Shown: positions 6,026-23,248, counted from the first letter of the stretch. The stretch is 64,000 bases of DNA from Vulcanimicrobiota bacterium (GCA_963757945.1 CAVWTN010000002.1:1606974-1670973), one strand, 5' to 3'. Numbers and translations are program-made. The notes: a model not told the origin generated them from the sequence alone.

Positions 6026-6931
6026 ATGCGAGCGTCCAAGCATCTCCTAACTCTTGCCATCCTCCTGTCGATCTCCGCACTCTCCGCATGTGGCGGCGCC
6101 GGATCGACCCCCGCGGCGACGGCAACCGCAACCCCAACGGCGTCGCTTTCCGGGACGCTCATTGAATACACGTCAGGGTTGCCCTTGAGCGGATTCACCG
6201 TTACCCTCGGCACGGGGTCGGATTTCTTCACGTGCAATAGCGCACAGACGCAAGCCGTCAACGCCTGCGAGCAGGTCGCCTCCATTACCGCAACGACAAC
6301 AACGAGCCCATCGGGAGCGTTCTCGCTCTCCAATATCCCAGTCGGATCGTATCTGCTTGTCATCAAGCAAGACAGCACTTACGCAACGCTGCACCGCTGG
6401 GTTGCGCTTTCGTCTGGTCAAGCATCGCTCGGAACCGTGAAGCTCTCGGCCCTTTCGGGAGACGAGCAACGCTGGCTGGTTGACGTCAACACGAAGCGCG
6501 CGACGGTCTCGTATCCAGCATCATTTGCGAATCTCGTCATCGACGAATACGCCGAGGAACAAGCTCGTGCTGAGGCATCAGCGGTTGCTGCGGGAGCATA
6601 TTCGTATAGCGATGCCACGGAAGGCACGTTCCTCGGGCTGTACCTTAGTAGTCCGGGAGTGCGATTTTCGGGAGGGAGTGGAGTTGCAGACCTTCAACCG
6701 GCGGCTTCGGCATACGTTGCGGCAGACCAAGCGTTTTTTGCGGAAAAAGCGAATTGCCCAAATGGCAACTGGCAAACGTGTGTATGGGCCGAAAATACCG
6801 GACACTACATCGCTCTTTCTAACACACAAGACACCTGGATCGGATTGGGCGAATCCTCGACCTCATACCATTACGCCGGCGGCGGCATCCCTCTGTTTCA
6901 GTTTCGCGTGAGGCCATCCGAACGGACATAA
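6026..6931 (+). CDS. Secreted lipoprotein with a carboxypeptidase-regulatory-like/Cna-B-type beta-sandwich domain.
   Basis: Signal peptide plus lipobox MRASKHLLTLAILLSISALSAC. SGTLIEYTSGLPLSGFTVTL...SPSGAFSLSNIPVGSYLLVI is typical of CarboxypepD_reg-like domains. It is preceded by a 45%-GC AT-rich leader. The 3' end abuts or overlaps the putative left IR of the next IS. Confidence 0.55.
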   Translation: MRASKHLLTLAILLSISALSACGGAGSTPAATATATPTASLSGTLIEYTSGLPLSGFTVTLGTGSDFFTCNSAQTQAVNACEQVASITATTTTSPSGAFSLSNIPVGSYLLVIKQDSTYATLHRWVALSSGQASLGTVKLSALSGDEQRWLVDVNTKRATVSYPASFANLVIDEYAEEQARAEASAVAAGAYSYSDATEGTFLGLYLSSPGVRFSGGSGVADLQPAASAYVAADQAFFAEKANCPNGNWQTCVWAENTGHYIALSNTQDTWIGLGESSTSYHYAGGGIPLFQFRVRPSERT

Positions 6932-6958
6932 TTAGTGAGGGCGTGAAAGGTCTCACGC

Positions 6959-7360
6959 ATGCAAAGGAACCACGAATCTCCGGACCCGGAGGTTCCCGCC
7001 AAGGCAGCGCGCCGGCGGTTTTCTGCGGCCGAGAAGGCCCGCATTCTCGAGGAGTACGACCGCGCCTCGGCGATCGAGCGAGCGGCGATCTGCCGCCGGG
7101 AGCGCATCTACTCATCGCATCTCTTCCACTGGCGTAAGCAGCGCGCCGCCGGAGCGCCGCTCGACGCCAAGCGGGGGCGTAAGCCCGATCCGCAAGGCGT
7201 GGAGAACACGCGCCTGCGCAAGGAGAACGCCACCTTGGCGGAGCGCCTGGCCAAGGCTGAACGGGTGATTGACATCCAGGGAAAAGCATACGCGCTCTTG
7301 CGGTCCGTAGTCGGCGAGAGCGCGGAACAGACGGACTTGCCGCCGTCGAGAAAATCGTAA
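6959..7360 (+). CDS. IS3-family transposase OrfA.
   Basis: RRRFSAAEKARILEEYDRASAIERAAICRRERIYSSHLFHWRKQ (HTH), then a leucine zipper LRKENATLAERLAKAERVIDI. Confidence 0.8.
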   Translation: MQRNHESPDPEVPAKAARRRFSAAEKARILEEYDRASAIERAAICRRERIYSSHLFHWRKQRAAGAPLDAKRGRKPDPQGVENTRLRKENATLAERLAKAERVIDIQGKAYALLRSVVGESAEQTDLPPSRKS

Positions 7361-8526
7361 TGGATCTCGCGGCCGAGCTTGGCGAACGCGAAGCTTGCCG
7401 GCACGTTGGGCACGCGCGAGCGAGCTTTCGGCGTCGTCACGTGCTTGAGCCTCCAGCGCTCGAGGATCCGCCTGAACGAGTGAACCCTTCCTCGCGGCCC
7501 TCGCGGCAACAGCGGCGGTATCAAATACGGCAACTCACGCGAAGCGAACGCAGCGATACCCGCACGCGCCGTCCGTCATCGTTGGCGCTGAGCATGGAGG
7601 AACGTCAGATCGTCTTGGATGCGATTCATCAGCCGCGCTTCGTAGATCGCAGCGTACCGCACATCCACGCGACGCTCATGGACGAGGGGACCTATCCCTG
7701 CTCGATGGCGACGATGTATCGGGTTCTCCACAGCGTCGGCGAGGTCGGCGAACGGCGCGATCAGGCAACGCGGCCTGCACGCGTAAAGCCTGAGCTCTGC
7801 GCGACGGCGCCGCGTCAGGTGTTTGCCTGGGACATCACCAAGCTGCACGGGCCGCGGAAATGGAGCTATTTCTATCTCTACGTGATCGTCGATATCTACA
7901 GCCGCTTCGTCGTGGGTTGGATGGTCGCCGATCGCGAAAGCTCCGAGCTGGCTCGCATTCTGCTGTCGGAAACGATCCGCAAGGAAGGCGTCGACCCGGC
8001 AAAGCTGACGGTGCATTCTGATAACGGCAGCTCGATGGCCTCGAAACCCGTCGCCTTCCTCCTTGCCGATCTAGGCGTGACCAAGAGTCATTCTCGGCCT
8101 CACGTCAGCGATGATAACCCGCACATCGAGTCGCTGTTCAAGACCGTCAAGTATCAGCCGGAATTCCCAAAGACGTTTGCTAATCTCGCTGAGGCGCGCG
8201 TCTTCTGCCGCACCTTCGTGCAGTGGTACAACACGCAGCATCGCCACAGCTCGCTCGCGCTCGTATCGCCGTCAGACGTCCATCATGGCCGCGCAGGCGC
8301 GATCCTACGGCAGCGCCAGGTCGTGCTGGACGCGGCGTATGCCAAGCATCCCGAGCGATTCGTTCGCGGCGCTCCGAGAGTTCCGCAACTTCCAACCGCA
8401 TCATACATCAATCGCCCCAAAGAAACCGCAAGCGACACGCCACAACCGTCGCAGATCCAGTCTCGCGACTACAGCAACTCAGCGGAGATTGCAGCAACGA
8501 TCAAGCCACTTGAACTCAGCGCTTGA
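7360..8526 (+). CDS. IS3-family transposase OrfB (DDE integrase core). It is probably expressed as an OrfAB fusion by -1 frameshifting. The ATG at 7360 is unlikely to be the native start.
   Basis: The DDE motifs are as above. The first about 80 codons are R-rich and look like an out-of-frame artefact or the frameshift window. Confidence 0.75.
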   Translation: MDLAAELGEREACRHVGHARASFRRRHVLEPPALEDPPERVNPSSRPSRQQRRYQIRQLTRSERSDTRTRRPSSLALSMEERQIVLDAIHQPRFVDRSVPHIHATLMDEGTYPCSMATMYRVLHSVGEVGERRDQATRPARVKPELCATAPRQVFAWDITKLHGPRKWSYFYLYVIVDIYSRFVVGWMVADRESSELARILLSETIRKEGVDPAKLTVHSDNGSSMASKPVAFLLADLGVTKSHSRPHVSDDNPHIESLFKTVKYQPEFPKTFANLAEARVFCRTFVQWYNTQHRHSSLALVSPSDVHHGRAGAILRQRQVVLDAAYAKHPERFVRGAPRVPQLPTASYINRPKETASDTPQPSQIQSRDYSNSAEIAATIKPLELSA

Positions 8527-9230
8527 CAATCGAATCAAGCGCCACTAAACTCAAGGCGCCGCACACTAAATCACGCGCAGCGCGTGGTCTCATTCGAGCT
8601 GAAAGCTTCCGCATCGACTACGGCCAGCAGTGGGCCTATGCTGGCATTATCGGGCAAAACGGAACGAATGCCGGTCCAGCAATGGTCGTAAGAAGCCTCA
8701 CTAAGCATCTCTAAGCAAACCGCATGGCACGCCAACCGCCCACGCGACCGCTTGCGGCGAGGGGGGGCGTCTGGAATGACTCATTAAACTTGTGTCGCGA
8801 GGCGAGCCGGGCTGCCTCGGCGGGCAGTCAAGGAAACCGCACTCCAGTTGGTGGGACACTCTCAAAACCGCGCGCTTGGATTGGCTGGTGCGGGGCGGAA
8901 GGGCCTTCTCGATTTTGTGGATGGCAACGCCAACGGCACGGTCATGAACGAGTTGCGCGCAATCGAAAAAGTACCGATCATAAAGATGGCCCGTTCGAGA
9001 CTGAGCATCCGACGCGTAACCCGGCAGACGAGGCAACGCCGCGAGACGATTGAGTTAAGGGCAGGAGGCGGGATTGCTGCTGCGGCGGGGCGCCAAAAGC
9101 GCACACAACAGGCGCAGGGCCAACCGAGCTTGATCCACGTCGCTCCCCTAACGTCAACCTCGCCCAGCGTGCACGCGCGGTTTCACACGAATCCGCCGCC
9201 CGAAGTGCACGTGCTCCCCTATACGCGGGG

Positions 9231-10142
9231 TTAGCGGGTAGCCTGCGGCCGCCTGTGTGCTTGGCAGATCAAGCACGCGCACGTCATACGGGTGAAATGA
9301 CGAACCCCAACGGCGACTCCACGAGCGCTGTCCGCGCGCTGGAAAATCGTCCGAAAGAGTGCCGTCTCGTCGTTCTCAACGTAACGACGGAGCGCGTAGC
9401 TGCAGAGATCGGCGAGCTGAACCATCCGCGTGAGCTTACTATCGACAAAAAGGGGTGTTTCGATGATTCGAAAGATGTTGGTCCAAAGAGTCCCGTGTTG
9501 GTGAAAGTTGCGCATCATTTCGGTGTGTTTCGTAGCGACGGTTTGATTATTGTCGTGGACCAGGATTCCGAAAATCCGGTGCTCGACGTCTGGGCTCAAA
9601 TTCGCAAGGTACAGCTCGAAGCGCGAGACTACTTGCTCAAAAGCTTGCTCACCGATATCGCGCTGCATTATTGTCGGATCGAAGTGTTTCTTGTCGATGC
9701 ACTCCGCAAAAAGTCGTGCAAAGGCCCAACTCGCCACGCGTTGAGCGATCTCGTCGATAAGGCGTTTGCGCTCAGCAAGTGTAAGATGTACGTACGCTCG
9801 TGTGTGCGCATAGTTCTTCTTTTGCTGGCGATACGTTTTATTTTGCTGGGCGCGCTGAAGTTTCAGTAGGTGAGTTACGCGCTCCCGTTCAACCGCTGAT
9901 CTCCGTGTCGCAGAGTCCATTGTTTCGAAGCCGGGAATCCGCGTTTGCTCAGGATAGTCGCGCAATATCCACGCTGTATGAAGCTCTTCCTTCTCAAGGC
10001 GGTAGTGCGCTAGAACGTCCGTAATCTCACGATCCGCATCACGCCAGCTGGAGATCGGGATTGAAAGCCCCGCGAGCACAAAGTGCGAGGTATTTCCCGG
10101 GACGTCGGCCGTTCCCGATTCGTCTATATAACAGATGTACAT
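9231..10142 (-). CDS. DUF3800-family protein.
   Basis: It starts MYICYIDESGTADVPGNTSHFVLAGLSI, the hallmark YIDESG N-terminus of DUF3800. It sits in an island of about 50% GC. Confidence 0.6.
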   Translation of the reverse strand: MYICYIDESGTADVPGNTSHFVLAGLSIPISSWRDADREITDVLAHYRLEKEELHTAWILRDYPEQTRIPGFETMDSATRRSAVERERVTHLLKLQRAQQNKTYRQQKKNYAHTRAYVHLTLAERKRLIDEIAQRVASWAFARLFAECIDKKHFDPTIMQRDIGEQAFEQVVSRFELYLANLSPDVEHRIFGILVHDNNQTVATKHTEMMRNFHQHGTLWTNIFRIIETPLFVDSKLTRMVQLADLCSYALRRYVENDETALFRTIFQRADSARGVAVGVRHFTRMTCACLICQAHRRPQATR

Positions 10143-10164
10143 AGAACAGAACGCGTCAATACAA

Positions 10165-10215
10165 AAGAAAAAGCGACTGGGCTTTAGGGCTAAAAGCCCT
10201 AAGATGAGACGCTCG
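10165..10215 (-). terminator. Candidate intrinsic terminator (hairpin plus T-tract on the minus strand), downstream of the 12502<-10517 operon.
   Basis: The plus strand reads gggctttAGGGCTAaaagccc. The minus strand reads GGGCTTTtagcccTAAAGCCC followed by agtcgCTTTTTCTTTTG. Confidence 0.3.
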
Positions 10216-10516: not shown

Positions 10517-11089
10517 TCAGACGCGAGTCCGTCGTTCCCCTGGGAGCTCTTCTCGGACATGCCGTTCTTGCGCCGGTGTTTCGATTGTTTTGGGGCGCGC
10601 CTCGCGGACGGCGGTGATGGCTGCATCCGGGTTCATTCCAAGCTCCACCAGCAGCCGGGCCGCGATCATGCCGGTTCGGCCGAGGCCCGCTCGGCAGTGA
10701 ATCACGACGAGACGGCCGGCGCGTAGGCATTCGCGCGCTTCGCGGCCGACGGTTCGCCACGCTTGTTCGAATGCCGGGCCGGGCACGCCGGCATCTGGGA
10801 TCGGGAGGTGCCGCCACGGAAGGCCGCTAGTCGCAAGCACACTTGCGAAATCAGGAACGCCGAGAGCCTTGAATTCGTGCGATTCGTTGAGCGTGATCAG
10901 CAGGCACGGATCCACGCGGCGTATCACCTCGAGGTCGGCGTCGAGGTCGCGCCGCCAGCGAATGCCGTTGAAGGATAGATCGTCGGAACGCCCCGGGCAC
11001 AGCGTCATGCCGATTCGCCCGCCCGTTCCCGGCACGTCGACCATGTCGACCCTCAGCGGATGCGTAGCGCTCGTCCTAAACTCGCTCAC
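10517..11089 (-). CDS. Dual-specificity (Cys-based) protein phosphatase family protein.
   Basis: The CX5R P-loop is VVIHCRAGLGRTGMIAARLL. The size (about 190 aa) fits the DSP fold. Confidence 0.75.
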   Translation of the reverse strand: MSEFRTSATHPLRVDMVDVPGTGGRIGMTLCPGRSDDLSFNGIRWRRDLDADLEVIRRVDPCLLITLNESHEFKALGVPDFASVLATSGLPWRHLPIPDAGVPGPAFEQAWRTVGREARECLRAGRLVVIHCRAGLGRTGMIAARLLVELGMNPDAAITAVREARPKTIETPAQERHVREELPGERRTRV

Positions 11090-12041
11090 TCAAGCCCCCG
11101 CACCGTGCGCTTGCAAGCACTTCCTTGAGAACGCCGTCAAGCAGCGTCCGTGCGCTGAGCCCGTCGATCCACGCCGCGGGGAAGGCCCCCAGTCCCGAGC
11201 GAGCGCCGACGATCGCGCCGGTGATCGATGCGATCGTGTCGGTATCGCCGCCGGAGGCCGCCGCGACGCCGATCGCCGCCACCGGATCGCCGGCGAAGCA
11301 CGTCGCGATGGCATCCGCGGCGGCAACCGTTTCCCACGCGCTCATCGCCACGTTGCGCAGCCGGCTCGGCAAACGCAGCCCGGACGGCGCGAGATCGCGG
11401 TGCAAGTCGTGCCACGCTTTGACGAACGTCGCATCGACGATACCGGCGGGGACATCCAGCGACGCTTCCACGCCGTGCAGCGCGTCATGCACGATCGCCG
11501 CTTGGGCCGCGGCTGCGGCGATCGCGGCCGGATGCCCATGCGTCACGCGCGCTTGCACCGCCGCAACCTCGAGCACTGTATCGCGATCCGCGAGAAACCC
11601 GACCGGGTGGACGCGCATCGCCGTTCCGTTGCCGCCATCCTCGGGGTGACCGCACGTTGCGGGATCCGCCCCTCGCCCCAGACGCGCGAGCGAGCGCGTT
11701 GTGGCGCCGCCGGGCCCGCCGGTCCAAAACATCTCGCCGAACCGCCCGGTATGGCGATCGAGATCTTCCAGGAAGCGCTTGGCAAATAACCCGGCCGTCA
11801 ACGGCTCGCTGCTTGCAACCGCCGTTGCGACGGAAAGGGCCATCGCCGTATCGTCGGTCGGCCGGCCTGGTTCACGCGGGGACAAGAGCGAACCGGGCAT
11901 CGCTCGCAAGTATTCCCGTACGATGGGCTCACCGAGACGGCGCTCGATCGCGTCGCTATTGATCAATTCGAACGCCGACCCGAGAGCGTCGCCGATCGCG
12001 GCGCCGTACAGGCAGCCCGCGATGCGGTCGGCGCGCGTCAT
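11076..12041 (-). CDS. ADP-ribosylglycohydrolase (ARH/DraG family). The listed ORF extends to 12080.
   Basis: RIAGCLYGAAIGDALGSAFE, PTDDTAMAL, GGNGTAMRVHPVG and ASGGDTDTIASITGAIVGA are all ARH family signatures. The start at 12041 gives an ATGA overlap with the upstream gene. Confidence 0.9.
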   Translation of the reverse strand: MTRADRIAGCLYGAAIGDALGSAFELINSDAIERRLGEPIVREYLRAMPGSLLSPREPGRPTDDTAMALSVATAVASSEPLTAGLFAKRFLEDLDRHTGRFGEMFWTGGPGGATTRSLARLGRGADPATCGHPEDGGNGTAMRVHPVGFLADRDTVLEVAAVQARVTHGHPAAIAAAAAQAAIVHDALHGVEASLDVPAGIVDATFVKAWHDLHRDLAPSGLRLPSRLRNVAMSAWETVAAADAIATCFAGDPVAAIGVAAASGGDTDTIASITGAIVGARSGLGAFPAAWIDGLSARTLLDGVLKEVLASARCGGLSERV

Positions 12042-12502
12042 GCGGCTTCCGATGTTGAGAGCTTGCTCTCGAGCGCGCACAGCGTCTCGTCGCCGGAGAC
12101 GATGCGGAAGATCTTCGGATACTGTTCCTCGGCCGTCCAGTAGAAGAAGCCAAGAAGATTTCCGAGGACCGACGCGTCGAGATGCTCCGCCCGATAGTCG
12201 ATCTCAAGGACCAGGCCGTCCGGCCTGACCGCGAACTTCGCGACCATCATCGCCGTGTTCGCGCGCATCGTCGCTTCGAAGAGCTGCGCCCGCAGGCCGG
12301 CTTCCTCGGGGACGTTGCAGACGACGGTGGAGATGTGCAGCCAGTCCGCGGTCAACGCCGCGACGATGAACCATTGCCGCGTACGGCCGTGGTAGGAGAG
12401 GCCGCGGCGCACGGGATCGAGGCGAAACGATGCGAGGCCGGCTTCCTTCATCAGGGTCTTGAGCCGCGCCGAGGCTTCGGGTTGTGGATTCTTGTCTTCC
12501 AT
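12038..12502 (-). CDS. YbjN-like (putative sensory transduction regulator / T3SS-chaperone-like fold) protein.
   Basis: A 154-aa acidic protein. FRLDPVRRGLSYHGRTRQWFIVAAL...LVLEIDYRAEHLDASVLGNLLGFFYW resembles the YbjN family. It is the first gene of a three-gene minus-strand operon. Confidence 0.5.
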   Translation of the reverse strand: MEDKNPQPEASARLKTLMKEAGLASFRLDPVRRGLSYHGRTRQWFIVAALTADWLHISTVVCNVPEEAGLRAQLFEATMRANTAMMVAKFAVRPDGLVLEIDYRAEHLDASVLGNLLGFFYWTAEEQYPKIFRIVSGDETLCALESKLSTSEAA

Positions 12503-12566
12503 ACCGATAGTGTAGGTGAATGTGCACCAAGGCGTCAGTCGGTCAGTTGCCGGCCCGGGTCAGAAT

Positions 12567-13565
12567 ATGACCCACCCCCCTCGCGCCGCGCACGGGGGAA
12601 AAGTCGAGCGCTTCGTCTCGGTCATTCGCATCCTCGAGCAGGATCGCAAGATCACGAAGAAGCGCATCTACGAGTTGTTTGGCGTCAAGTCCGAGAGTTC
12701 GTTCAAGCGCATCAAAGCGCAGCTTGCGTACGCCGGGCTGCCGATCAGCTACGATCCGGACGACAAACACTTTCACGTTCCGCCGGGCGCTTCGATCGCG
12801 CGCTATGGCATCGATCCGCGCACGCGCGTGCAGCTCGCGCAAGTTCGCGCCGCGATCTCGGCGCTCGGCGGCCCGATCTCCGAAGCGCTCGACGACGTGC
12901 TGGAAGCCCTCGACGCGCGCATCGCGATCGGCGATTGGGACGGGACGGCCGTCGTCTCCTCGCGCCATCCGCAGCCGCGCGGCGGGCCGGCCTTTTTCGA
13001 AACGCTCGACCGCGCGCTTTCGGCGCTACGCGAGCATCGCTGGCTTTCGTTCACGTATAGCCGCAGCGACGGTTCCCACGCCGATCGCCGCACCGTCGCG
13101 CCGTACGCCGTGCACACGCACAACGGGCGCTATTATCTCTGGGGCTTGACGGAAGGCGAGCTGGAGCCGAAGCTCTACGTGCTCGATAGCGTGAGCGATG
13201 CGACGATCGAGGACGACACGTTCGTTCCCGATCCGGGGCTCAGTCTCGACGATGCCTTGCGCTACAGCTTCGGCACGATGATCGGCGACGGCAGCCCGCA
13301 GCGCGTCGTCGTGCGGATCGAGCCGGCGGCGGCCGCCTTCGTGCGCTGCCGCCAATGGCCGGCGGAAGTCGAAACCGCCGACGAGCCCGACGGCTCCGTG
13401 CGCCTGACGTTCGAACTCACGCGCTTCGCGGAGATCGTCGGCTGGGTCCTGAGCTTCTGCGGCGCCGCCACGATCGTCAGCCCGCCGGAGGCGCGAGCCG
13501 AGCTGCACGCGGCCGCCGTGCGCGCTGCTGAGGCGTCGGCGGACGCGATCGAGGCCCTCGGCTAG
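12567..13565 (+). CDS. WYL-domain transcriptional regulator (HTH plus WYL plus C-terminal WCX-like domain). The start is chosen at ATG 12567; the listed ORF begins at 12516.
   Basis: N-terminal wHTH is VERFVSVIRILEQDRKITKKRIYELFGVKSESSFKRIKAQL. The WYL core is HADRRTVAPYAVHTHNGRYYLWGL. It is divergent from the ARH operon, with an intergenic gap of only about 65 bp. Confidence 0.8.
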   Translation: MTHPPRAAHGGKVERFVSVIRILEQDRKITKKRIYELFGVKSESSFKRIKAQLAYAGLPISYDPDDKHFHVPPGASIARYGIDPRTRVQLAQVRAAISALGGPISEALDDVLEALDARIAIGDWDGTAVVSSRHPQPRGGPAFFETLDRALSALREHRWLSFTYSRSDGSHADRRTVAPYAVHTHNGRYYLWGLTEGELEPKLYVLDSVSDATIEDDTFVPDPGLSLDDALRYSFGTMIGDGSPQRVVVRIEPAAAAFVRCRQWPAEVETADEPDGSVRLTFELTRFAEIVGWVLSFCGAATIVSPPEARAELHAAAVRAAEASADAIEALG

Positions 13566-14736: not shown

Positions 14737-15342
14737 CTACGCGGTGACGGTCGCGTGCGCGGGGATGCGCAGCTTCACTTCGCCGAAGACGATCTCGGGC
14801 GGATGCGCGAGCAGGCTTCCGAGGTTCTTGTCGGCCCACGCGCGCGCCCGTTCCCGCGCGGTTTTCGCGGACTCCTCATCCGCGAACACGAGCAGCCAGG
14901 AGAGGGCTCCGTGGCCGGCGTCGATCGCGCCGTGCGCGGCGTACCCGGGCAGCTCGGCGATCGTCGGGATGTAGCCTTCGACGATCCGCTTCTTCGCTTC
15001 CTCAACCTCGCCCGGCTTCGTCGCAAGGTGCCACACGAATCCGTGGCCGGAGTGTACGTGCTCCTTGACGTCGCGGAACGCGACCGGACCTTCGCTGATC
15101 TTGGGGTGGCCGAGCTCCGTCGCTGCTTGATTCTCACGGACCCAACCCGCGGCGAGTTCGGCCCCCAGCTCGTCGTCGAAGACGCTTGCGGTGACCACGC
15201 CGTCCGGTCCGGCGTCGATCAGCGTCCACGAGACGAAGCCCCAAGCGTGGCTGATCGGGTGCATGAAGCGCTCGCGCGTATGACGGACGATCGCATCGAT
15301 CTGCCCGGGCTCGGTCTTGTAGTGTCGGACAACTCCAAACAT
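14737..15342 (-). CDS. Hypothetical protein, 201 aa, possibly with two small alpha+beta (ABM/Dabb-like) halves.
   Basis: An uninterrupted ORF with protein-like composition and high GC3. No firm family assignment. Confidence 0.45.
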   Translation of the reverse strand: MFGVVRHYKTEPGQIDAIVRHTRERFMHPISHAWGFVSWTLIDAGPDGVVTASVFDDELGAELAAGWVRENQAATELGHPKISEGPVAFRDVKEHVHSGHGFVWHLATKPGEVEEAKKRIVEGYIPTIAELPGYAAHGAIDAGHGALSWLLVFADEESAKTARERARAWADKNLGSLLAHPPEIVFGEVKLRIPAHATVTA

Positions 15343-15558
15343 CCAAAACCGCCTTTCACGCCGTGCTCACGCGGCGCTTCACGAACTTTTCGCGACCTCG
15401 CGAACCCGCCCCCGTCGGGTGGCGCCGACGCGCAGGCGATCGCCCCTCGCCGCCCTTCGGCAAGTATTTCTCGGCAAGTGGCTAGCATGACGCGATGGGC
15501 GGGTGGAGAGGCATTGACCTGCGATGCAATTCTGCCCCAAGCGAGGTATGATCCGGAC

Positions 15559-16125
15559 ATGTCTACCGCGGCCGAGCGGCTCCACCGGATTACGACGGAC
15601 ATCTACGAGCGCATGGCCGCCGGCGGCTTGTTGCCCGAGGGTGGCATCGAGCTCATCGATGGCCTCGTTGTCGAGATGAGCCCCAAAGGTGACCGGCACG
15701 CCTATGCGGTCACCCGCCTGAACGAGCTACTCGTCGACCAGCGCCGGGGGCGCTACGCCGTGTATGCCGACAGCCTGAGCCTGCGCCTCGGGCCGCGCGA
15801 CGAGCCGGAGCCCGATATCGCCCTGGCTCGGACGACCCGAAGCTATGCGCGCGAACGGCCGCGTCCCGACGAGATCGCGCTGATCGTGGAAGTCGCTGAT
15901 TCGTCCCGCGCGTTCGATCTCGGTGAGAAGCGCGCCAAGTACGCCGCCGCCGGGATTCCGGAATACTGGGTCGTCGACTTGCAACGAAACGCGGTCAACG
16001 TCTTTCGGAGTCCGCGCGGCGACCGCTACGTCGATGCGCGCGTGGCGAAATCCGGTGAGGCAATCGCTCCAGTGGAGTTTCCCGACGTCGCCGTCGACGT
16101 CGCGCTCGTGCTCGGGGAATCGTAG
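15559..16125 (+). CDS. Uma2-family (DUF820, PD-(D/E)XK) endonuclease.
   Basis: MSTAAERLHRITTDIYERMAAGGLLPEGGIELIDGLVVEMSPKGDRH ... PDIALIVEVADSSRAFDLGEKRAKYAAAGIPEYWVVD. The listed ORF 14755..16125 carries a long antisense N-terminal extension, which is rejected. Confidence 0.8.
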   Translation: MSTAAERLHRITTDIYERMAAGGLLPEGGIELIDGLVVEMSPKGDRHAYAVTRLNELLVDQRRGRYAVYADSLSLRLGPRDEPEPDIALARTTRSYARERPRPDEIALIVEVADSSRAFDLGEKRAKYAAAGIPEYWVVDLQRNAVNVFRSPRGDRYVDARVAKSGEAIAPVEFPDVAVDVALVLGES

Positions 16126-16159: not shown

Positions 16160-17056
16160 TTACTTCAGCGCTTCGATGGTCCAGCCGCTCACGTTGACGT
16201 ACGGCACGTTCTCGAGCGAGATCGAGCGGGTCTCGACGAGCGAGAGCCGTTCGAGCGCTGCGTGACGCACGCGGCCGTCGACGCTGACCGCGACCGTCAA
16301 TTGCTGGCGCGCGGTGCCGCCGCGGAAAGAGTCGCCGGCCGGCGCGGCATCGCCGCCGCCACTCTGAGGGCCGGCGCCTTCAGGCGGGCCTCCGCCGGGG
16401 AAACCGCCGCCTCCGGGAAAGCCCCCGCCGAAGCCGCCTCTGGTGTGAAAGCCGCCTTGCCGCGATCCGTCGCCGAGCGACGAGCCGCCGGCAGGCTGCT
16501 GCGCTTGAACGAGAACCTGCCCTGCACCGCGCAGGTCGTAATCTGCGCCGGATGCGTTGGTCACGGTCAGCGGGACGATGACTTCCGTTGCCGCGCGGCG
16601 CTCGCCGGGAACCGTCAGCGTTGCGCTCCAGCCGTCATGCGTCGCCGGCTCGTTTGCGAAAAGCTCCGTCAGCCGATTGATTCCTTCGATTGCGTCGCGC
16701 AAGGCGGCGTTTTGGTTCGCGCTTCGATCGTTCTTCGGAATCTCCAAACGGCCGTCGGGCGCCACGTTGAGCACCGTCAGATCGGGCGGGAGTCCGCCGT
16801 AGGAGCCGTCGAGCGCAAGCGTCGACGGCGACTTGCGCCGCAACGTGACATCGGCGACCGAGGTCTGCGGTCCGGCAAGACTCTGCGTCGTGCGCGTGAT
16901 GCGATAGTGCAGCGTCGCGCCGGTCGGCGGGATCACGGACGGCGCGTCGGCGAACGCCGGAGCGGCCCACGCCGCGGCGCAGAGCGCCGCGGCAAATGCC
17001 GCCGGCGCAGGCGAAAACGAAGCCGGCAGAAGCGCCGGCACGTGCTTGTGTCGCAT
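16160..17056 (-). CDS. Secreted hypothetical protein with a Gly-rich (GGF/GGFP) segment.
   Basis: Signal peptide MRHKHVPALLPASFSPAPAAFAAALCAAAWAAPAFA. There is a globular N-terminal region followed by a GGFHTRGGFGGGFPGGGGFPGGGPPEG low-complexity tract. The upstream part of the listed 16160..19381 ORF is antisense to the TIR-STAND gene and is rejected. Confidence 0.5.
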   Translation of the reverse strand: MRHKHVPALLPASFSPAPAAFAAALCAAAWAAPAFADAPSVIPPTGATLHYRITRTTQSLAGPQTSVADVTLRRKSPSTLALDGSYGGLPPDLTVLNVAPDGRLEIPKNDRSANQNAALRDAIEGINRLTELFANEPATHDGWSATLTVPGERRAATEVIVPLTVTNASGADYDLRGAGQVLVQAQQPAGGSSLGDGSRQGGFHTRGGFGGGFPGGGGFPGGGPPEGAGPQSGGGDAAPAGDSFRGGTARQQLTVAVSVDGRVRHAALERLSLVETRSISLENVPYVNVSGWTIEALK

Positions 17057-17128
17057 AGCGGCACTGTAAGCGCTTAGTCTTACAAGCGGCTTGGAAAGGC
17101 CGGCTCCTGCGCCTGGTATGATGGTGCC

Positions 17129-19789
17129 GTGATCTTCATCAGCCATTCCAGCCTCAATAATGAAAAAGCGATCGCCGTGCGCGATTGGCTCGTTGAGCAA
17201 GGCTGGGGGGCGTCGCGGATCTATCTCGATCTTCAGAACATCCACGCGGGCGAGCGCTGGCGCGAAGCGCTCAACGACATCGGCTCGAACTGCGAGGCGG
17301 TCATCGCGTGCCTTTCCGATGACTGGTTGCGTTCGCCCGAATGCTTGCGCGAATTCAATCAGGCCGAGGCGACCAGCAAGCCGATCTTCCCCGTCGTCGT
17401 CGCGCCGATCACCGAGCGCATCCCGCGCTTCATCACGGACCTGCAGTTCGCCGACATCAGCGACCCGGCGTTGCAGGCCGAGGGCTTCGAAAGCCTCCGG
17501 CGCGGACTCTTGGCGGCGCGCATCGTTCCGGATGACCCTTCGGCCGCTTCCGACGGAAAGTCCGCGCAGGCGCGCGCTGCCGCCCGTTTCGCCACGAACT
17601 TGCCCAAACAAGTCTCGAGCTTCGTCGGGCGCGAGAGCGTCGTCGCGGAAATCGAAACGCTGTTGCAAGACGCGCGCCTGGTCACGCTGTTCGGCGCGGG
17701 CGGCCTCGGCAAGACGCGCTGCGCTCAGGAGTTGGGCGCGCGCTTGCTGGAGCAGTTCGACGGCGGCGTGTGGTTCGTCGATCTCGCGCCCTTGCGCGAT
17801 CCGGCGCTCGTCGCAAGCGAGATCGCGACCGCGTGCGGCGTTCGCGAAGCGCCGGGAAAATCGATGCTCGACGCGCTGACCGCGCACCTGGAACGCAAAC
17901 GCACGTTGCTGCTGCTCGACAATTGCGAACACGTCGTCGCGGAGGCCGCGAAGACGGCGGCCGCGGTCCTCGCGGCCTCGGCAAACGTCAAGATCGTCGC
18001 GACGAGCCGCGAGCTCCTGAAGGTCGTGGGCGAGGCCGTCTATCAGATGCCGACGCTCGCCGTGCCGGAACGCAGCAAGCACCTCGCGCCGGAGAGCGCG
18101 CTGACGTACGGCGCCGTCGAGCTCTTCCACGATCGCGCGCGCGCCGCGAACCGCGCGTTTCGGCTGACCGCGGACAATACGCCGGTCGTCGCCGAGATCT
18201 GCGCCCGGCTCGACGGCATTCCGCTTGCGATCGAACTCGCCGCCGCGCGGATGCGGATGCTCTCGCCGAACCAACTCGCAAAGCAGCTCGACGAACGCTT
18301 TCGCGTGCTCACGGGCGGCGACCGCACGGCACTGCCGCGCCAGCAGACGATGCGGGCGCTCATCGATTGGAGCTACGATCTGCTCTCCGCGCAAGAGCAG
18401 CGGCTCTTCCGCGACATCTCGGTCTTCGCGGGCAGCTTCTCGTTTCAAACCGCCTGCGTAGTTTGCGCGAACGCCGAGACGAGCGAACTCGACGTGCTCG
18501 ACGTGCTCTCGTCGCTCGTCGACAAGTCGCTCGCGGTCGCGGAACCTTCGGATTCGGACGCGCGATGTCGCGTGCTCGAATCGATCCGCGAATACGGCCG
18601 CGAGAAATCGATCGCAGCCGGTGAGGCCGCTGATGTTTCCGGGCGCCACGCGGCGGCCTACGCGGAACTCGCCGAACGGCTCGAACGCGAGTACGAAGAG
18701 TTGCCTTACGAGCTGTGGCTCGAGCAGACCGCGAGCGAAGTCGAGAACGTGCTTGCCGCGCTCGCATGGTCGTTCGGCGGTTCGGGCGACGTGCTGGTCG
18801 GGCAGCGGCTCGCCGCGACGCTGCGCCGCGTGCTCGTCGCGTTCAGAGCCGCAGAAGCGCGCCGCTGGGTCGCGACGGCGCTCGAAGCGGTCACGCCTGC
18901 CACGCCGCAGCCGGTGATCGGACGACTCGAACTCGCCGAAGCGACGCTCGCCTCGACGATGAGCCAGGTGCGTCCGGCCCTCGCCGCGGCGCAACGCGCG
19001 CTCGCGATCTTCGAGGGGCTGCGGGACGCGCGCGGGGTCGCCAACGCCCAGCGTTGGGCGGGGCGTTCCCTCATGCTCGTCGGCGAGATCGACGAAGGCG
19101 CGGCGTTGCTCGAGCGATCCCTCGCGACGCTTCGGGGCCTGGGCTTTCGGCGCGCCGGCGGCATCTTGCGCGACCTCGGCACGGCGCGCGCGCTGAAGAC
19201 CGACGTCGCCGGGGCCCGCGTGCTCTTCGCGCAGGCGCTCGCGAGCTTCAAGGAGAGCGCCGACGACTACAACATCGCGGTGACGGCTGGGACGCTCGCC
19301 GACGCGGAGTTCCGCTGCGGCGATGCGCGGGCGGCGCTCGTCGCTGGCTTGGAAGGGCTCGAAGCGGCGCGCGCGCGGCATCTCGAGTCGAGCGTGCTCA
19401 TGTGGCTGTTGTGCAATCTGGCCGCGTTCAGCCTCGAGCTAGGGCAGTACGACGACGTGCGCGCGTACGCGCACGAACTGCTCGCGCTGCGGCTCGATGC
19501 GCCCAGCGACATCGACGTCGCGTTCGCGTTGCAGCATCTCGCGGGCGTCGCCACGCTGCGCGAGCCGCCGGAGCCCGGGAGCCTGCGGCTCGCGGCGACG
19601 CTGCTCGGCTTCGTCGATGCGCGGCTCGCGGCGCTCGGCGTCGATCGCGAATACACGGAGCAACATCTCTACGATAAGATCCAGGCTGTCTTACGCAGCG
19701 CACCGGACGAGAACGCGCACGGCGAACCCGCCAGCGCGAACGGCGCGCTCAACGAAGAGGCCGCGGTCGCGCTCGCGCTGACGATCTGA
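17129..19789 (+). CDS. TIR-NB-ARC-TPR protein (STAND NTPase with N-terminal TIR domain).
   Basis: TIR: MIFISHSSLNNEKAIAVRDWL...AVIACLSDDWLRSPECLREF. P-loop: VTLFGAGGLGKTRCAQELG. Walker B: LLLLDNCEHVV. Further NB-ARC motifs: IVATSRELL and GIPLAIELAA. The C-terminal about 350 aa hold TPR-like helical repeats. GTG start. Confidence 0.85.
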   Translation: MIFISHSSLNNEKAIAVRDWLVEQGWGASRIYLDLQNIHAGERWREALNDIGSNCEAVIACLSDDWLRSPECLREFNQAEATSKPIFPVVVAPITERIPRFITDLQFADISDPALQAEGFESLRRGLLAARIVPDDPSAASDGKSAQARAAARFATNLPKQVSSFVGRESVVAEIETLLQDARLVTLFGAGGLGKTRCAQELGARLLEQFDGGVWFVDLAPLRDPALVASEIATACGVREAPGKSMLDALTAHLERKRTLLLLDNCEHVVAEAAKTAAAVLAASANVKIVATSRELLKVVGEAVYQMPTLAVPERSKHLAPESALTYGAVELFHDRARAANRAFRLTADNTPVVAEICARLDGIPLAIELAAARMRMLSPNQLAKQLDERFRVLTGGDRTALPRQQTMRALIDWSYDLLSAQEQRLFRDISVFAGSFSFQTACVVCANAETSELDVLDVLSSLVDKSLAVAEPSDSDARCRVLESIREYGREKSIAAGEAADVSGRHAAAYAELAERLEREYEELPYELWLEQTASEVENVLAALAWSFGGSGDVLVGQRLAATLRRVLVAFRAAEARRWVATALEAVTPATPQPVIGRLELAEATLASTMSQVRPALAAAQRALAIFEGLRDARGVANAQRWAGRSLMLVGEIDEGAALLERSLATLRGLGFRRAGGILRDLGTARALKTDVAGARVLFAQALASFKESADDYNIAVTAGTLADAEFRCGDARAALVAGLEGLEAARARHLESSVLMWLLCNLAAFSLELGQYDDVRAYAHELLALRLDAPSDIDVAFALQHLAGVATLREPPEPGSLRLAATLLGFVDARLAALGVDREYTEQHLYDKIQAVLRSAPDENAHGEPASANGALNEEAAVALALTI

Positions 19790-19845
19790 CGCTTGAGACC
19801 GAGATGAACCGGGTCGCGCTCGTGCTGACGATGTAACGCGCGAGG

Positions 19846-21402
19846 TTAGTGGACCGGGATCGTATACGTCGTCGAGCGCAGCAGCGGCCCGTCCGTCTCC
19901 GTCACCGTGACGGTGCAGTTCGTACCCGAGCTGCCGCTGATCAGGTCGAATTCGACGTATGGTCCCACGGCGTGGAACAGCGCGTGCGTCGACGTTCCCG
20001 AGCTGACGGGCGGGCTCTCCTGCGGACCGCCCGGATCTTTGTAGATCGGGGGCGGCGGCGGAACGTCGCCGTTCTCGTCGGGGCCGTTGTTGACCAGACA
20101 CGAACCGGCCGACGTATCGACCGAGAAACCGCCGCAGATCGCGGGCGCGATGCACGTGCCCGGGACCGCCGTATAGGTCGCGTCGTCCGCGACGAGCAGT
20201 TCCACCGCGTGATGCGCCGGCACCGACGTCGCGGACGGAGCGGGCGACGCCGCAGGGTTGGCGTTGCTGTTGCAGTTGGTGCCGCTCGCCGCGGCGACGC
20301 AGAGCTGCAAATCGGCGACGTTCCCGACGATCACGTTTTGAATCACCGGCACGGTGAATGACGGCGTGACGCACGTCGTCGTTCCGCTCGCCGCGCAGAG
20401 CTGTTCGGACGACGGCCCGTCGAGACCGATGAAGACGCGGTCCGGCGCCGGAGCCCCGACCGTGAACGTGACGGTCGGCGCACCGAACAAGACCGATGCC
20501 GAATCGACGGTGCCGAGCTGGCAATAGAACGACGGAATGCCGAGGATGACGGCGCCGCTCAGCGCCGGAGCGAGCACGTGCCCGACATATGCGGGGAAGC
20601 ACGCCGAGGAGAACATCGTGCCGCCGCCGCCGGTGTTCGCGTAATTCACCACGAGGCTCGACGGCAGCGTCGGCGCGTTCGAGGTGAGCACCGTGTTCGA
20701 TCCGGGGACGATCGGCAAGCCGACTTCGCTCGTCGAATCCTCGGGGATGATGCTGATCTCGGTCTTCGTACGCGGCGGCAGCGTGATGCTCGCAACGTCG
20801 GAGGTGAACGTGATCGAATGCCCGGATGCCGTGACGTCGCCGATCTTCAGCGACGAGACGGTCGCCGGTACGGGCTTCAGTTGAAAGAAGCTCACGCCGA
20901 AGAGCGTTCCGTCGACGCTGCATGGGACGTGCGCGGAGAAACCATCGACGCGCAGCGTGATCGGAAAGGGGAACGGGTTGTACAGCGGAATCGCAAACGT
21001 CGCCGGGCACGTGCGAGGATGATTCCATTGCGCGTGCAGCGACCCGCCCGAAGCAACGGAACCTTGAGGCTGACGGACGCCCAGCAGCAGCTTCGTGCCG
21101 GCCGGCACGTTCGTCGCGTGCACGGTCAGGTTCGCGCTGTACCCGCCCGCCAGCGGGATCGCAAAGGAGCTCGGCCTCGCGGAGAGCGCGGCGCTGACCG
21201 TGGCCTCGCCGCTCTCCGGGCCGGCGGCCGGGTCGACCTGCGGCTGTTGCGCCGGCACGGCGGCCGGCTGCTGCACCGGAGCGGCCGGCTGCGCGGGCAG
21301 CATGGCGCTGGGCTGCTGCATCGAGCTCTGACCGCTACAAGCCCCGAGTGCGAGCGCAATCGACATCAGCGCCGATAGTCCGAGCAAGCGAATAGCGGAC
21401 AT
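19846..21402 (-). CDS. Secreted lipoprotein with a Pro/Gln-rich linker and a Thr/Ser/Gly-rich beta domain.
   Basis: MSAIRLLGLSALMSIALALGACSG signal plus lipobox. The linker is QPAAPVQQPAAVPAQQPQVD. Confidence 0.55.
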   Translation of the reverse strand: MSAIRLLGLSALMSIALALGACSGQSSMQQPSAMLPAQPAAPVQQPAAVPAQQPQVDPAAGPESGEATVSAALSARPSSFAIPLAGGYSANLTVHATNVPAGTKLLLGVRQPQGSVASGGSLHAQWNHPRTCPATFAIPLYNPFPFPITLRVDGFSAHVPCSVDGTLFGVSFFQLKPVPATVSSLKIGDVTASGHSITFTSDVASITLPPRTKTEISIIPEDSTSEVGLPIVPGSNTVLTSNAPTLPSSLVVNYANTGGGGTMFSSACFPAYVGHVLAPALSGAVILGIPSFYCQLGTVDSASVLFGAPTVTFTVGAPAPDRVFIGLDGPSSEQLCAASGTTTCVTPSFTVPVIQNVIVGNVADLQLCVAAASGTNCNSNANPAASPAPSATSVPAHHAVELLVADDATYTAVPGTCIAPAICGGFSVDTSAGSCLVNNGPDENGDVPPPPPIYKDPGGPQESPPVSSGTSTHALFHAVGPYVEFDLISGSSGTNCTVTVTETDGPLLRSTTYTIPVH

Positions 21403-21625
21403 GGAGAGCCTCCAGCCGTTAGGTGTTCGAGCGCGATTCCTGAGGAGCGCCTAAATCGCCTCCGCGAGCCGAGTAGGCCTTTTGGCCCGCGCCCTTCTCT
21501 CGAAGGCTGGGCAAGTCTACGGCCGCCCGAGGATCGTCGCCGCCGAACGCGGTGCTCCTGAGAGCGTCTAACGGCGTGGTATGCTTTGCGCCTTACGTCT
21601 GTCCGCATGCTTGCAGAGGATGTGA

Positions 21626-23248
21626 TTGGTGAAGTTGGCGTCTGGAATTCCACTGCTCATCGGCGTCAGCGGCCATCGGCACTTGGGGGGCGGCGAGAAC
21701 GTCGCCGAGGTCCGCGCGCGCGTCGAGCGGTTCTTCGAGATGCTGCGGCGGCAATATCCGAACACGGAGCTGGTGCTCTACAGCGGCCTCGCGCGCGGAG
21801 CCGATCAGCTCGCTGCCGAGGTCGCGCTCGCGCGCGGGATCGCGCTCGTGGCCGTGCTTCCGATGCCGCGGGAACTGTACGAGGAAGAGTTTCCCGGCCC
21901 CGAATTGCCCCGCTTTCGCGAGATCCTCGCGCAGGCCGAGCGAGTCGTCGAACTCCCGTTGCTCTCGGGCACGACGCCCGAGGACATTCGCTCCGATCCC
22001 GGCAGAGCGGGCCTAGCGGCGCAAGAGCAATACGCGGCGCTGAGCGACTTCCTGGCCGTTCGCACGCAATTGCTGCTCGCGCTCTGGAACGGCGTTCAGA
22101 GCACGGCGCTCGGCGGCACCGCGTGGACGATCCGAGCGAAGCTCAGCGGAAGGCTGCGCGCCGATGCCGAGCGTTTGGATCCGATCGACTTGGGGCTCGT
22201 GTACGTAGTTCCCGCCGCGGGCGAGGCGCCGTCGACCGCGCCGTTACCGCGCGAAGGTTTCGTCGCCGGAGATACGATCGAACCGTACCTCGCAGCGCTG
22301 CGCGACATCGACGTCTACAACGCGCATCTCGAGGATTCGGCGCGGCGGCCGGACGCATTGGCGGAGGCTCGCGACACCGCCGACGCGCTCGCGGTTCGCT
22401 ATCACCGGATGCTCGCGCGTACGCGGAACATCCTCGCGCTCTTGGTGTTGACGCTGGTGCTGATGTTCGGCATCTATTCGGAACTCGCGCGCACGCCTCT
22501 CGTATTGTTGATCTATCTCGCGACGCTGGTCGTCGGCGCAGGCATTTGGACCTGGCAACGCCGCGCTCATATCGAAAAGCGCTTCTTCGAGTATCGGGCG
22601 CTGGCCGAAGCGCTGCGCATCCAGCACGTGTGGTTATCGAGCGGCCTGCCGCATTCCGTCGAAGACTCGTATCTGCGCAAGCACGCGGGCGAACTGCACT
22701 GGATCCGCTTGGTGCTGCGTGGGTACGCGACCGATAGCGACATCGTCGCCGCGCTCGCCGTGCGCCGCGCGGCCCGGCCGGTTCCGGGGCGGCCCGAGGA
22801 TTATCCCGCGGCGCGTCAGTGGATCGTGGAACAATCCGCCTACTTTCAAAGCGGCGCCGTGCGCAGAACGCGCGCCGTCAAACGCTTGCGCTCGTTGGCG
22901 CGCATTCTCTACGGCGCGGGCGTCGTAGCGGCGGCCGGAACGGCCGTTGCCGGCTATCTGGAAGCGGCGCCCGCCATCGAGCATGCCTTGGTGTTCGCGA
23001 TGGCCGTCGCGCCGGCGTCTGCCGGCATCATCCTTTCATGGATCGAGCAGACGGGTATCGAAGACGAGGCCCGTCAAACGACACGGATGGCACGACTGTT
23101 CGAAAGCGCCCGGCTCGATTGGGAAGCGCATCCGACGCTGCGTACCGCGCTGATGAGCGAACTCGGCAAAGAAGCCGTCTACGAAAACGCCGATTGGCTC
23201 CTGATGCACCGCTCCCGCCCACTGGAAGCCCCGCTGAGCCCGGGGTGA
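21626..23248 (+). CDS. SLOG (LOG/DprA-like Rossmann) domain protein fused to a C-terminal multi-TM (SLATT/DUF4231-like) region.
   Basis: N-terminus: LLIGVSGHRHLGG...ELVLYSGLARGADQLAAEVALARGIALVAVLPMP (compare DprA SGLArGIDaaAH and the LOG GGGxGLMG...GGxVxGViP pattern). Predicted TM helices are NILALLVLTLVLMFGIY, PLVLLIYLATLVVGAGIWTW, ARILYGAGVVAAAGTAVAGYL and ALVFAMAVAPASAGIILSWI. Confidence 0.55.
   Translation: MVKLASGIPLLIGVSGHRHLGGGENVAEVRARVERFFEMLRRQYPNTELVLYSGLARGADQLAAEVALARGIALVAVLPMPRELYEEEFPGPELPRFREILAQAERVVELPLLSGTTPEDIRSDPGRAGLAAQEQYAALSDFLAVRTQLLLALWNGVQSTALGGTAWTIRAKLSGRLRADAERLDPIDLGLVYVVPAAGEAPSTAPLPREGFVAGDTIEPYLAALRDIDVYNAHLEDSARRPDALAEARDTADALAVRYHRMLARTRNILALLVLTLVLMFGIYSELARTPLVLLIYLATLVVGAGIWTWQRRAHIEKRFFEYRALAEALRIQHVWLSSGLPHSVEDSYLRKHAGELHWIRLVLRGYATDSDIVAALAVRRAARPVPGRPEDYPAARQWIVEQSAYFQSGAVRRTRAVKRLRSLARILYGAGVVAAAGTAVAGYLEAAPAIEHALVFAMAVAPASAGIILSWIEQTGIEDEARQTTRMARLFESARLDWEAHPTLRTALMSELGKEAVYENADWLLMHRSRPLEAPLSPG

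Follow-up and report, generated by a model that had tools for sequence, protein, structure and literature searches.

How does a bacterial receptor-like ATPase that carries a TIR domain convert recognition into a response: by consuming NAD+ as the terminal effector or by sending a signal to a separate protein? This question is raised by a gene in a 64-kb stretch of DNA (hereafter, the window) from a Vulcanimicrobiota bacterium (GCA_963757945.1, CAVWTN010000002.1:1606974-1670973), which encodes an 886-amino-acid (aa) TIR-NB-ARC-TPR protein of the STAND class (positions 17129 to 19789, plus strand) and is accompanied by genes for a predicted lipoprotein and for a membrane protein with a SLOG-like domain. 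As judged by sequence comparison, this STAND protein belongs, by its chassis, to the class III cyclase-ATPase-TPR family of Eremiobacterota, minus the cyclase. Because the linkage of the TIR to the SLOG-domain membrane protein is conserved, the TIR is probably a signal generator and not the terminal effector for which it was taken in the original prediction, an earlier reading made from the sequence alone.

Domain architecture of the TIR-STAND protein

The 886-aa open reading frame (ORF) starts with GTG, is unbroken, and has a GC content of 0.85 in third codon positions (GC3) against 0.48 in second positions (GC2), the codon bias that is characteristic of genuine genes in the window (65-70% GC); public collections already contain an identical 886-aa protein (P0001), encoded on a 2.5-Mb contig. 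The tripartite organization that had been predicted, with an N-terminal TIR domain, an NB-ARC NTPase containing a P-loop and Walker B motif, and about 350 aa of TPR-like repeats, was borne out by Pfam searches, a family profile and the fold of the TIR domain. Pfam TIR_2 matches aa 2-122 (17132-17494; all coordinates within this gene are on the plus strand) with an E-value of 1.8e-16 and 61.1 bits (cut-off 28), and the translation contains both of the TIR strings noted previously, IFISHSS and DDWLRSPECLREF. When the AlphaFold2 model of aa 1-160 (predicted local distance difference test score (pLDDT) of 80, with a dip at aa 31-50, the BB-loop region) was compared with the PDB using Foldseek, all 35 matches at E ≤ 1e-3 were TIR domains, among them those of SPARTA TIR-APAZ, MyD88, SpbK, ThsB, BtpA, RPS4 and AbTir, so that the non-TIR, flavodoxin-like fold considered as an alternative for the N-terminus did not materialize. 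Glu75 (codon GAA, 17351-17353, read directly from the DNA), which lies within the string CLREF, is invariant across an alignment (A6) of 17 TIR relatives, with identity down to 21%, and corresponds to the catalytic glutamate of the NADase TIRs, in their C-L-x-E motif. Judging by the S-x-W-C-L-x-E-L motif of enzymatic TIRs, we take it to be a catalytic-type residue; MyD88, which is not an enzyme, has glutamine where Glu75 aligns.

The NTPase module occupies aa 157-500 (17597-18628) and includes an NB-ARC match at aa 175-417 (35.0 bits, cut-off 23.5), a match to AAA_22 (41 bits), and a weak match to WHD_ROQ1 at aa 419-492, approximately where the winged helix is located. Its motifs are intact and nearly invariant in the family: in the P-loop, or Walker A, GAGGLGKT (aa 189-196; 17693-17716), residues G189, G191, G192, G194, K195 and T196, and at the Walker B motif LLLLD (aa 260-264; 17906-17920; part of LLLLDNCEHV, aa 260-269), residues D264, N265, C266, E267 and H268 are each at least 90% conserved among 120 homologues. 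The TPR-like alpha-helical repeats, the putative sensor, span aa ~500-860 (18626-19708), that is, some 360 aa, and find their support at the profile level. In the single sequence, TPR_12 falls below the Pfam cut-off (23.9 against 30.1 bits), and there is no match to leucine-rich repeats (LRR); the profile of the 120 homologues matches the solved TPR proteins Pins/LGN and kinesin light chain at about aa 600-800 (E-values from 3e-14 to 1e-6). The best solved NTPase match of the same profile is the AfsR NOD (8k60, E-value 2e-17; 8jke, 2e-16). The family profile was needed for these PDB searches, given that the full single sequence produced no match and the TIR alone produced only marginal ones, to MyD88.

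Pfam searches detected no DNA-binding output domain in the STAND protein, either of the SARP/BTAD type (Trans_reg_C and BTAD) or as a C-terminal helix-turn-helix (HTH), the feature that would make the protein a transcription factor. The one helix-turn-helix family on record, HTH_77 (PF25872), is listed for the identical protein and for nearly all listed members of the family, and because of this wide presence, we assign it to the NTPase module, as its winged helix, and not to an output domain. Thus, the original prediction was correct in that DNA-binding domains are absent, but the argument derived from this absence against an AfsR-type protein fails: by sequence comparison, the NTPase-TPR chassis is of the AfsR, signal-transduction type, and it is the output alone that differs.

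Replacement of the output domain in a cyclase-dominated family

A homology search yielded 7999 relatives of the STAND protein, nearly all from Eremiobacterota metagenome-assembled genomes; more than 100 of the listed family members are 45-78% identical to it over aa 150-886. In the great majority of the family, the N-terminus is a class III adenylate/guanylate cyclase; a few members carry SARP (for example, P0074, P0081 and P0084), GAF or HTH-XRE N-termini, and a minority carry TIR. A rough neighbour-joining tree built from the NTPase-TPR module places the clade of the window protein inside cyclase-only clades. Three relatives that are 71-78% identical to the STAND protein combine TIR, cyclase, NTPase and TPR (P0002, P0003 and P0004), and a fourth, P0005, has TIR without cyclase; in a second clade, proteins with TIR and no cyclase (P0014, P0021) are mixed with those that possess both (P0028, P0037), and P0115 is a further TIR-containing member devoid of the cyclase. 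Altogether, at least three clades contain TIR-STANDs without a cyclase. One locus (L094, 6956-11252) encodes an HTH-XRE relative of the chassis (HTH_31, 44 bits) followed by a fusion of a cyclic nucleotide (cNMP)-binding domain with a pyridine-nucleotide disulphide oxidoreductase, so that DNA-binding and cyclic-nucleotide themes are both seen within one chassis family.

The TIR of the window protein is 79% identical to that of P0002, and its aa 149-886 are 78% identical; what the window protein lacks are residues ~158-341 of P0002, exactly the cyclase domain, with both flanks retained in frame. At the DNA level, the segment 10448-11020 of locus L001 (from a sister genome, see below) is absent from the window, and the reading frame is preserved; no match to the cyclase hidden Markov model (HMM) was found anywhere in the 64 kb. 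The putative scar of the deleted class III cyclase (junction at ~17572/17594) lies in a low-confidence linker, aa 125-156 (17501-17596), and around the junction, at aa 143-159, the pLDDT of the AlphaFold2 model drops below 50. Among 120 family members, P0002 and P0003 alone have the metal-binding Asp of the cyclase replaced by Asn, and the same two alone have the transition-state Arg replaced by Ala. Because of the precise gap relative to P0002 and these catalytic substitutions, the comparison of sequences shows the order of events, namely, gain of the TIR, decay of the cyclase in the closest relatives, and clean in-frame deletion of the cyclase in the lineage of the window.

With cyclase-only, TIR plus intact cyclase, TIR plus dead cyclase, and TIR-only versions of one chassis, the family amounts to a natural experiment in output replacement, which is informative about the interconversion of defence and non-defence STAND clades. 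A recent survey of STAND proteins found such clades to be interspersed, and this chassis family is a concrete example.

A three-gene cassette and the linkage of TIR with SLOG-domain membrane proteins

When the window was compared with loci L001/L004 of a sister genome (OY968762.1, 'Candidatus Eremiobacteraeota bacterium MFD01689.bin.1.72') by blastn and tblastx, similarity was confined to positions 17128-23248, with unrelated flanks on both sides. This sole common stretch is a three-gene cassette, in which the STAND gene is followed by a convergent gene on the minus strand (19846-21402) that encodes a predicted lipoprotein of 518 aa, with a signal peptide, the lipobox LGAC and a Pro/Ala linker, and by a plus-strand gene (21626-23248) for a SLOG-domain membrane protein of 540 aa. 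A 33-nt direct repeat with 85% identity (19765-19797 and 19812-19844) copies the last eight codons and the stop codon of the STAND gene into the 56-nt spacer that precedes the stop codon of the lipoprotein gene, and may be a recombination scar at the gene boundary.

The lipoprotein matched no Pfam family. Its homologues, with lengths of 514-518 aa and 40-74% identity, accompany the chassis whether the output is TIR (74% identity in L001, 62% in L086, 41% in L002 and 40% in L087) or cyclase only (69% in L088, 5327-6871; 61% in L089, 5234-6784). At the cyclase-only relatives P0006 and P0007, the lipoprotein is present and the gene for the 540-aa SLOG membrane protein is absent. The same three gene families are linked also beside P0004 and, in a rearranged order, beside the distant TIR-cyclase-STAND P0037; in L084, a cyclase-less TIR-STAND gene lies 75 bp from the SLOG membrane gene, with no lipoprotein gene between the two.

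In the structural model of the membrane protein, the N-terminus (aa ~9-215) is predicted to be a YpsA/DprA-like SLOG domain, a candidate ligand-sensing module; helices fill the C-terminal half, which contains two hydrophobic hairpins (aa 269-310 and 427-473), that is, a four-transmembrane (TM), SLATT-like arrangement. With the sequence alone, all matches are sub-threshold or weak (YAcAr, 24.4 against 28.2 bits; DprA and ShosA; SLATT_1, E-value 0.016; DUF4231, E-value 1.2), and the protein did not match a solved SLATT-like structure. Weak SLATT_3/DUF4231 matches recur among the relatives, and the one from a Caballeronia plasmid passes the DUF4231 cut-off (30.9 against 24.7 bits). The family is large, with 4086 clusters from many phyla at E ≤ 1e-30, and is nearly absent from 2.9 million viral contigs (4 marginal matches).

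For 80 loci of this family, fetched from species-representative genomes of many phyla, we recorded the distance from the SLOG membrane gene to the start of the nearest TIR domain: it is at most 3 kb in 39 loci, including 24 with at most 1 kb, nearly always on the same strand, and 3-10 kb in 3 more. The neighbouring TIR_2 proteins have diverse architectures according to Pfam, namely, TIR alone, TIR-TM-TPR, TIR-TPR, TIR-WD40, SIR2-TIR and, in one case, DUF4062-NACHT-TPR; the same TIR-SLOG pairing is apparent in the annotation of the RefSeq plasmid pSBC2-4 from Caballeronia (L090). Examined from the side of the chassis, 5 of the 8 TIR versions have a SLOG membrane gene at a distance of no more than 4 kb, compared with none of the 81 non-TIR versions (0 of 47 when only those with at least 4 kb of flanking DNA are considered). 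The divergent TIR of P0115/L003 escaped the hand-built TIR HMM, so that all these TIR counts are lower bounds. Locus L094, where a SLOG gene is 7 kb from the HTH-XRE-type STAND, was considered as an adjacency with a non-TIR STAND and was not counted. No fusion of a TIR with the SLOG membrane protein was found, and the long family members P0148 and P0254 contain no TIR.

Several loci show arrangements of their own. In L015 (8404-11617), a three-gene operon consists of a gene for a Tll0287-like c-type haem sensor (289 aa, with a HAMP domain and no output domain), a 226-aa TIR and the SLOG membrane protein; such operons, from Steroidobacteraceae-like genomes, are found likewise in L006, L014, L019, L023, L024, L068 and others, and suggest that a membrane sensor of redox state or gas drives TIR signalling there. 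In L030 (5312-12315), three tandem TIR_2 genes are located 2 kb downstream of the SLOG membrane gene, a layout in line with how type III Thoeris has been described, several TIRs with a SLOG effector. Two genes upstream of the SLOG/DUF4231, TIR and WD40 group of L090, a TPR protein annotated 'cyclic nucleotide biosynthetic process' is encoded (1-1680), which is another cyclase-TPR protein near a TIR-SLOG pair. Finally, the Bacillus subtilis plasmid pBS72 (L091, 3629-5483) contains an operon that encodes, besides a TIR protein and a member of the caspase family, a 162-aa ORF product resembling the SLOG domain of the window's membrane protein (27% identity, E-value 2e-6); the operon looks like type IV Thoeris with a SLOG-like gene added.

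A putative signalling route and its alternatives

The cassette lends itself to the following scheme. The TPR-like repeats would bind a ligand, upon which the AfsR/NB-ARC-type NTPase would exchange its nucleotide and oligomerize; oligomerization would gather the N-terminal TIRs into active NAD+-consuming enzymes, and these would make an ADP-ribose-derived signal rather than drain NAD+ alone. In the SLATT-like membrane protein with its four TM segments (21626-23248), the YpsA-like SLOG domain would read this signal, and the SLATT-like module would then alter membrane permeability. Such wiring would be Thoeris-like: an NLR-type TIR protein would stand where Thoeris has the small sensor ThsB, and the SLOG membrane protein would be the receiver. 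We propose it by analogy, because of the behaviour of Thoeris types I, III and VII and the predictions for YpsA-clade SLOG and SLATT domains, and consider it the most likely explanation, at about even odds. In the published accounts, Thoeris signalling of this kind couples a TIR with SLOG (types I and III) or with SLATT (type VII, where the signal is cyclic ADP-ribose (cADPR)); the Aravind group has implicated YpsA-clade SLOG domains in cADPR sensing, predicted that SLATT forms a nucleotide-gated pore, and described cyclase and TIR as alternative generators of second messengers on STAND-like proteins.

Tentatively, the scheme can be taken further. The receptor would not itself be the killer: a ligand would trigger production of a small molecule by the TIR, which would gate the SLOG/SLATT-like membrane protein, the counterpart of the route from plant TIR-NLRs (TNLs) to helper channels, and this design would have evolved by a cyclase-to-TIR swap on a single chassis, of which three stages survive: a TIR alongside a live cyclase, a TIR alongside a dead one, and a TIR alone. 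If this is the case, nucleotides made by TIRs could be general second messengers beside cAMP in Eremiobacterota. If the cassette works as proposed, NLR-type sensors, too, can feed Thoeris-like signalling; the catalogue of such systems, from which a systematic Thoeris survey discarded Avs-type, STAND-fused TIRs, would be widened, and the path from receptor through small molecule to channel in plant TNL immunity could be modelled simply in bacteria. In any event, the SLOG membrane family is large, apparently uncharacterized, and has a clear testable partner.

Several observations weigh against the Thoeris-like wiring. In the literature, STAND-fused TIRs are treated as NAD+-depleting effectors, and PADLOC models match neither the STAND protein nor the membrane protein beyond weak domain-level similarity. 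The SLOG and SLATT assignments of the latter are below the Pfam cut-offs by sequence, and the evidence of the SLOG fold comes from a predicted model. The Fisher test p-values for the linkage of SLOG membrane genes with TIR versions of the chassis (1e-6 to 2e-5) overstate the evidence, given that the 5 positive TIR-STAND loci represent approximately three independent lineages; the other 3 of the 8 loci have no SLOG membrane gene in the available DNA. Conversely, half of the SLOG membrane loci lack a nearby TIR and are found among housekeeping genes, with no other signal-making enzymes next to them. The cyclase is apparently intact in the TIR-cyclase relatives P0004 and P0037, so that the TIR is not a simple replacement everywhere. 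Finally, the convergent lipoprotein gene separates the STAND gene of the window from the SLOG membrane gene, so that the two do not form one operon.

The most serious competitor, which we nonetheless consider unlikely, is stand-alone abortive infection of the Avs kind, whereby the STAND would oligomerize upon ligand binding and the clustered TIRs would deplete NAD+ and arrest growth, the SLOG neighbour being unrelated or redundant. The protein does have the same architecture as TIR-STAND/Avs proteins and a catalytic-type Glu, its best structural matches are the NAD+-depleting TIR-APAZ domains of SPARTA, and a SLOG membrane gene is missing from the 3 loci mentioned above; the Thoeris survey, moreover, takes STAND-fused TIRs to be NAD+-depleting effectors. 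This explanation, however, does not sit well with the lack of a match to any PADLOC Avs model, with the maintenance of the cassette across genomic contexts and in rearranged order, or with the association of the SLOG membrane genes with the TIR versions of the chassis and not with the cyclase versions; and across phyla, TIR is the dominant neighbour of the SLOG family.

The second alternative retains the proposed wiring, of whose probability it accounts for a minor part, and removes it from immunity: the TIR-made nucleotide would replace cAMP/cGMP as the output of the STAND, perhaps, in envelope monitoring via the lipoprotein. We consider this rather improbable, although it accommodates well the place of the chassis in a very large family of signal-transduction proteins whose outputs include cyclase, SARP, HTH-XRE and GAF, the retention of the lipoprotein whatever the output, the scarcity of the SLOG membrane family in viral contigs and the weak PADLOC context of the window; in addition, the Tll0287-like haem sensor with HAMP that is encoded upstream of TIR and SLOG in ~15 gammaproteobacterial loci suggests environmental input. 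What speaks for immunity is the location of the cassette beside insertion sequence (IS) elements and variable cargo, with flanks that differ between sister genomes, as is typical of defence or mobile cargo, the quick shuffling of N-terminal outputs, a hallmark of conflict systems, and the reports of phage protection by those TIR plus SLOG/SLATT operons that have been tested to date.

With respect to the biological role, therefore, the indications diverge: variable context and domain shuffling suggest defence, whereas the cyclase-signalling ancestry, the ever-present lipoprotein and the haem sensor-HAMP genes of gammaproteobacteria suggest a physiological pathway. We lean, without much confidence, towards conflict or abortive infection.

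Two further explanations concern the STAND protein itself. The TIR could, like that of MyD88, lack catalytic activity and serve in assembly or as an adaptor, only aiding oligomerization of the STAND or recruiting another protein; this is quite improbable given the invariance of Glu75, where MyD88 has Gln, and the fact that no second TIR protein with which it could pair is encoded in the 64-kb window, even if the MyD88 TIR ranks among the best matches in both sequence and structure and the dip in pLDDT coincides with the BB-loop region. The least probable is a decaying allele, a pseudogene in the making whose original output was inactivated by the loss of the cyclase: deletion of the cyclase here, its catalytic damage in the closest relatives, and the 33-nt duplication of the 3' end of the gene just downstream would fit such decay, but the ORF extends in full to the last residue of the homologues, with all NTPase and TIR motifs intact and strong codon bias, the deletion is precisely in frame, and TIR-STANDs without a cyclase recur across clades.

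Genomic surroundings of the cassette

The 17 kb upstream of the cassette are variable and IS-rich; PADLOC identified no complete known defence system in this region, which encodes a WYL regulator, a Uma2 nuclease (candidate PDC-S03) and a protein with a weak HerA/mad8 match. Other loci are surrounded by housekeeping genes. The first part of the window (1-10200) has a GC content of 0.58-0.61, compared with 0.65-0.72 elsewhere, and is probably horizontally acquired cargo; it contains genes for a HerA/FtsK-like ATPase (1456-3813; weak PADLOC mad8/HerA match) and a DUF3800 protein (9231-10142), and two IS3-type transposase pairs (4357-5615 and 6959-8526). Then follow, on the minus strand, genes for a DSP-type phosphatase (Tc-R-P/PTP-SAK; 10517-11089), an ADP-ribosylglycohydrolase (11076-12080) and a YbjN-like protein (12038-12502), with a divergent gene for a WYL-WCX regulator (12516-13565), and thus an ADP-ribose-processing module (10517-13565) is located 5 kb from the TIR gene. 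As conserved partners of the TIR, the ADP-ribosylglycohydrolase, phosphatase and WYL genes were rejected: they are absent from all other loci, and the sister genome is unrelated in this region.

The product of ORF 14755-16125 is a Uma2-family endonuclease in its C-terminal part (Pfam, 117 bits; PADLOC candidate PDC-S03, E-value 3e-17); a minus-strand ORF with better codon bias (14737-15342) overlaps it, and the Uma2 gene is probably shorter than the ORF. A 298-aa secreted protein (16160-17056) encoded divergently from the TIR gene is not conserved elsewhere and was likewise dismissed as a partner. Around the cassette, no tRNA genes and no convincing flanking repeats that would mark the boundary of a mobile element were found, and a scan for promoters and terminators performed no better than on shuffled sequences.

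Comparison with known systems

The original prediction likened the STAND protein to both Avs and plant NLRs; the NLR-like logic holds, but the comparison with the Avs models of PADLOC-DB v2 yielded no match to any Avs HMM, with only weak matches to SAVED_TIR, mad8 and spbK, and in NCBIfam only far-sub-threshold, partial matches to HaaT, FxSxx_TPR and FxsC. Like Avs (AVAST) and other TIR-STAND proteins (TIR-AP-ATPase), the window protein combines TIR, a STAND NTPase and a TPR-like sensor in one polypeptide and would be expected to act through ligand-induced oligomerization. Unlike in Avs, the chassis comes from an AfsR-like, cyclase-dominated family, and a separate SLOG membrane protein is linked to the STAND gene, which suggests a TIR that signals rather than kills.

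With Thoeris systems of types I, III and VII, the cassette shares a TIR gene linked to a gene for a SLOG-fold protein with a SLATT-like membrane module. Type I comprises the ThsB TIR and a SIR2-SLOG protein, type VII a TIR and a SLATT effector, with cADPR as the signal, and type III several TIRs and an effector with an SMF/DprA-type SLOG (van den Berg 2024). The window TIR, however, is part of an 886-aa NLR-type protein, not a small ThsB, the genes are not co-directional, and the lipoprotein is a third conserved member. In comparison with type III, judged by its published description, the SLOG of the membrane protein is DprA/YpsA-like, but the window contains a single TIR gene; in comparison with type VII, the SLATT similarity is weak.

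The AfsR/SARP STAND regulators and the class III cyclase-ATPase-TPR proteins have a homologous chassis (AfsR NOD, E-value 2e-17; 45-78% identity to the cyclase-fused relatives), but the window protein possesses neither the SARP/BTAD nor the cyclase domain and has TIR as the output. The plant TIR-NLRs ROQ1 and RPP1 show the same order of TIR, NB-ARC and repeats, with weak NB-ARC and WHD_ROQ1 similarity. These plant receptors signal through EDS1 to helper-NLR channels, and if the Thoeris-like wiring holds, the logic is shared: a receptor, a small molecule made by the TIR, and a separate protein that permeabilizes the membrane. The window protein differs in having TPR in place of LRR and in that no EDS1-like or helper-NLR components are present; the likeness is one of logic, not of shared descent of the whole pathway.

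Thus, membership in the Avs, SARP regulators, cyclase-STANDs or plant TNLs fails, in each case, on a defining feature. TIR-STAND proteins and TIR plus SLOG/SLATT systems are already known kinds; what is new is the NLR-type TIR in the putative position of sensor and signal generator of a Thoeris-like module, the AfsR/cyclase-type chassis on which it resides, and the stepwise replacement of the output domain.

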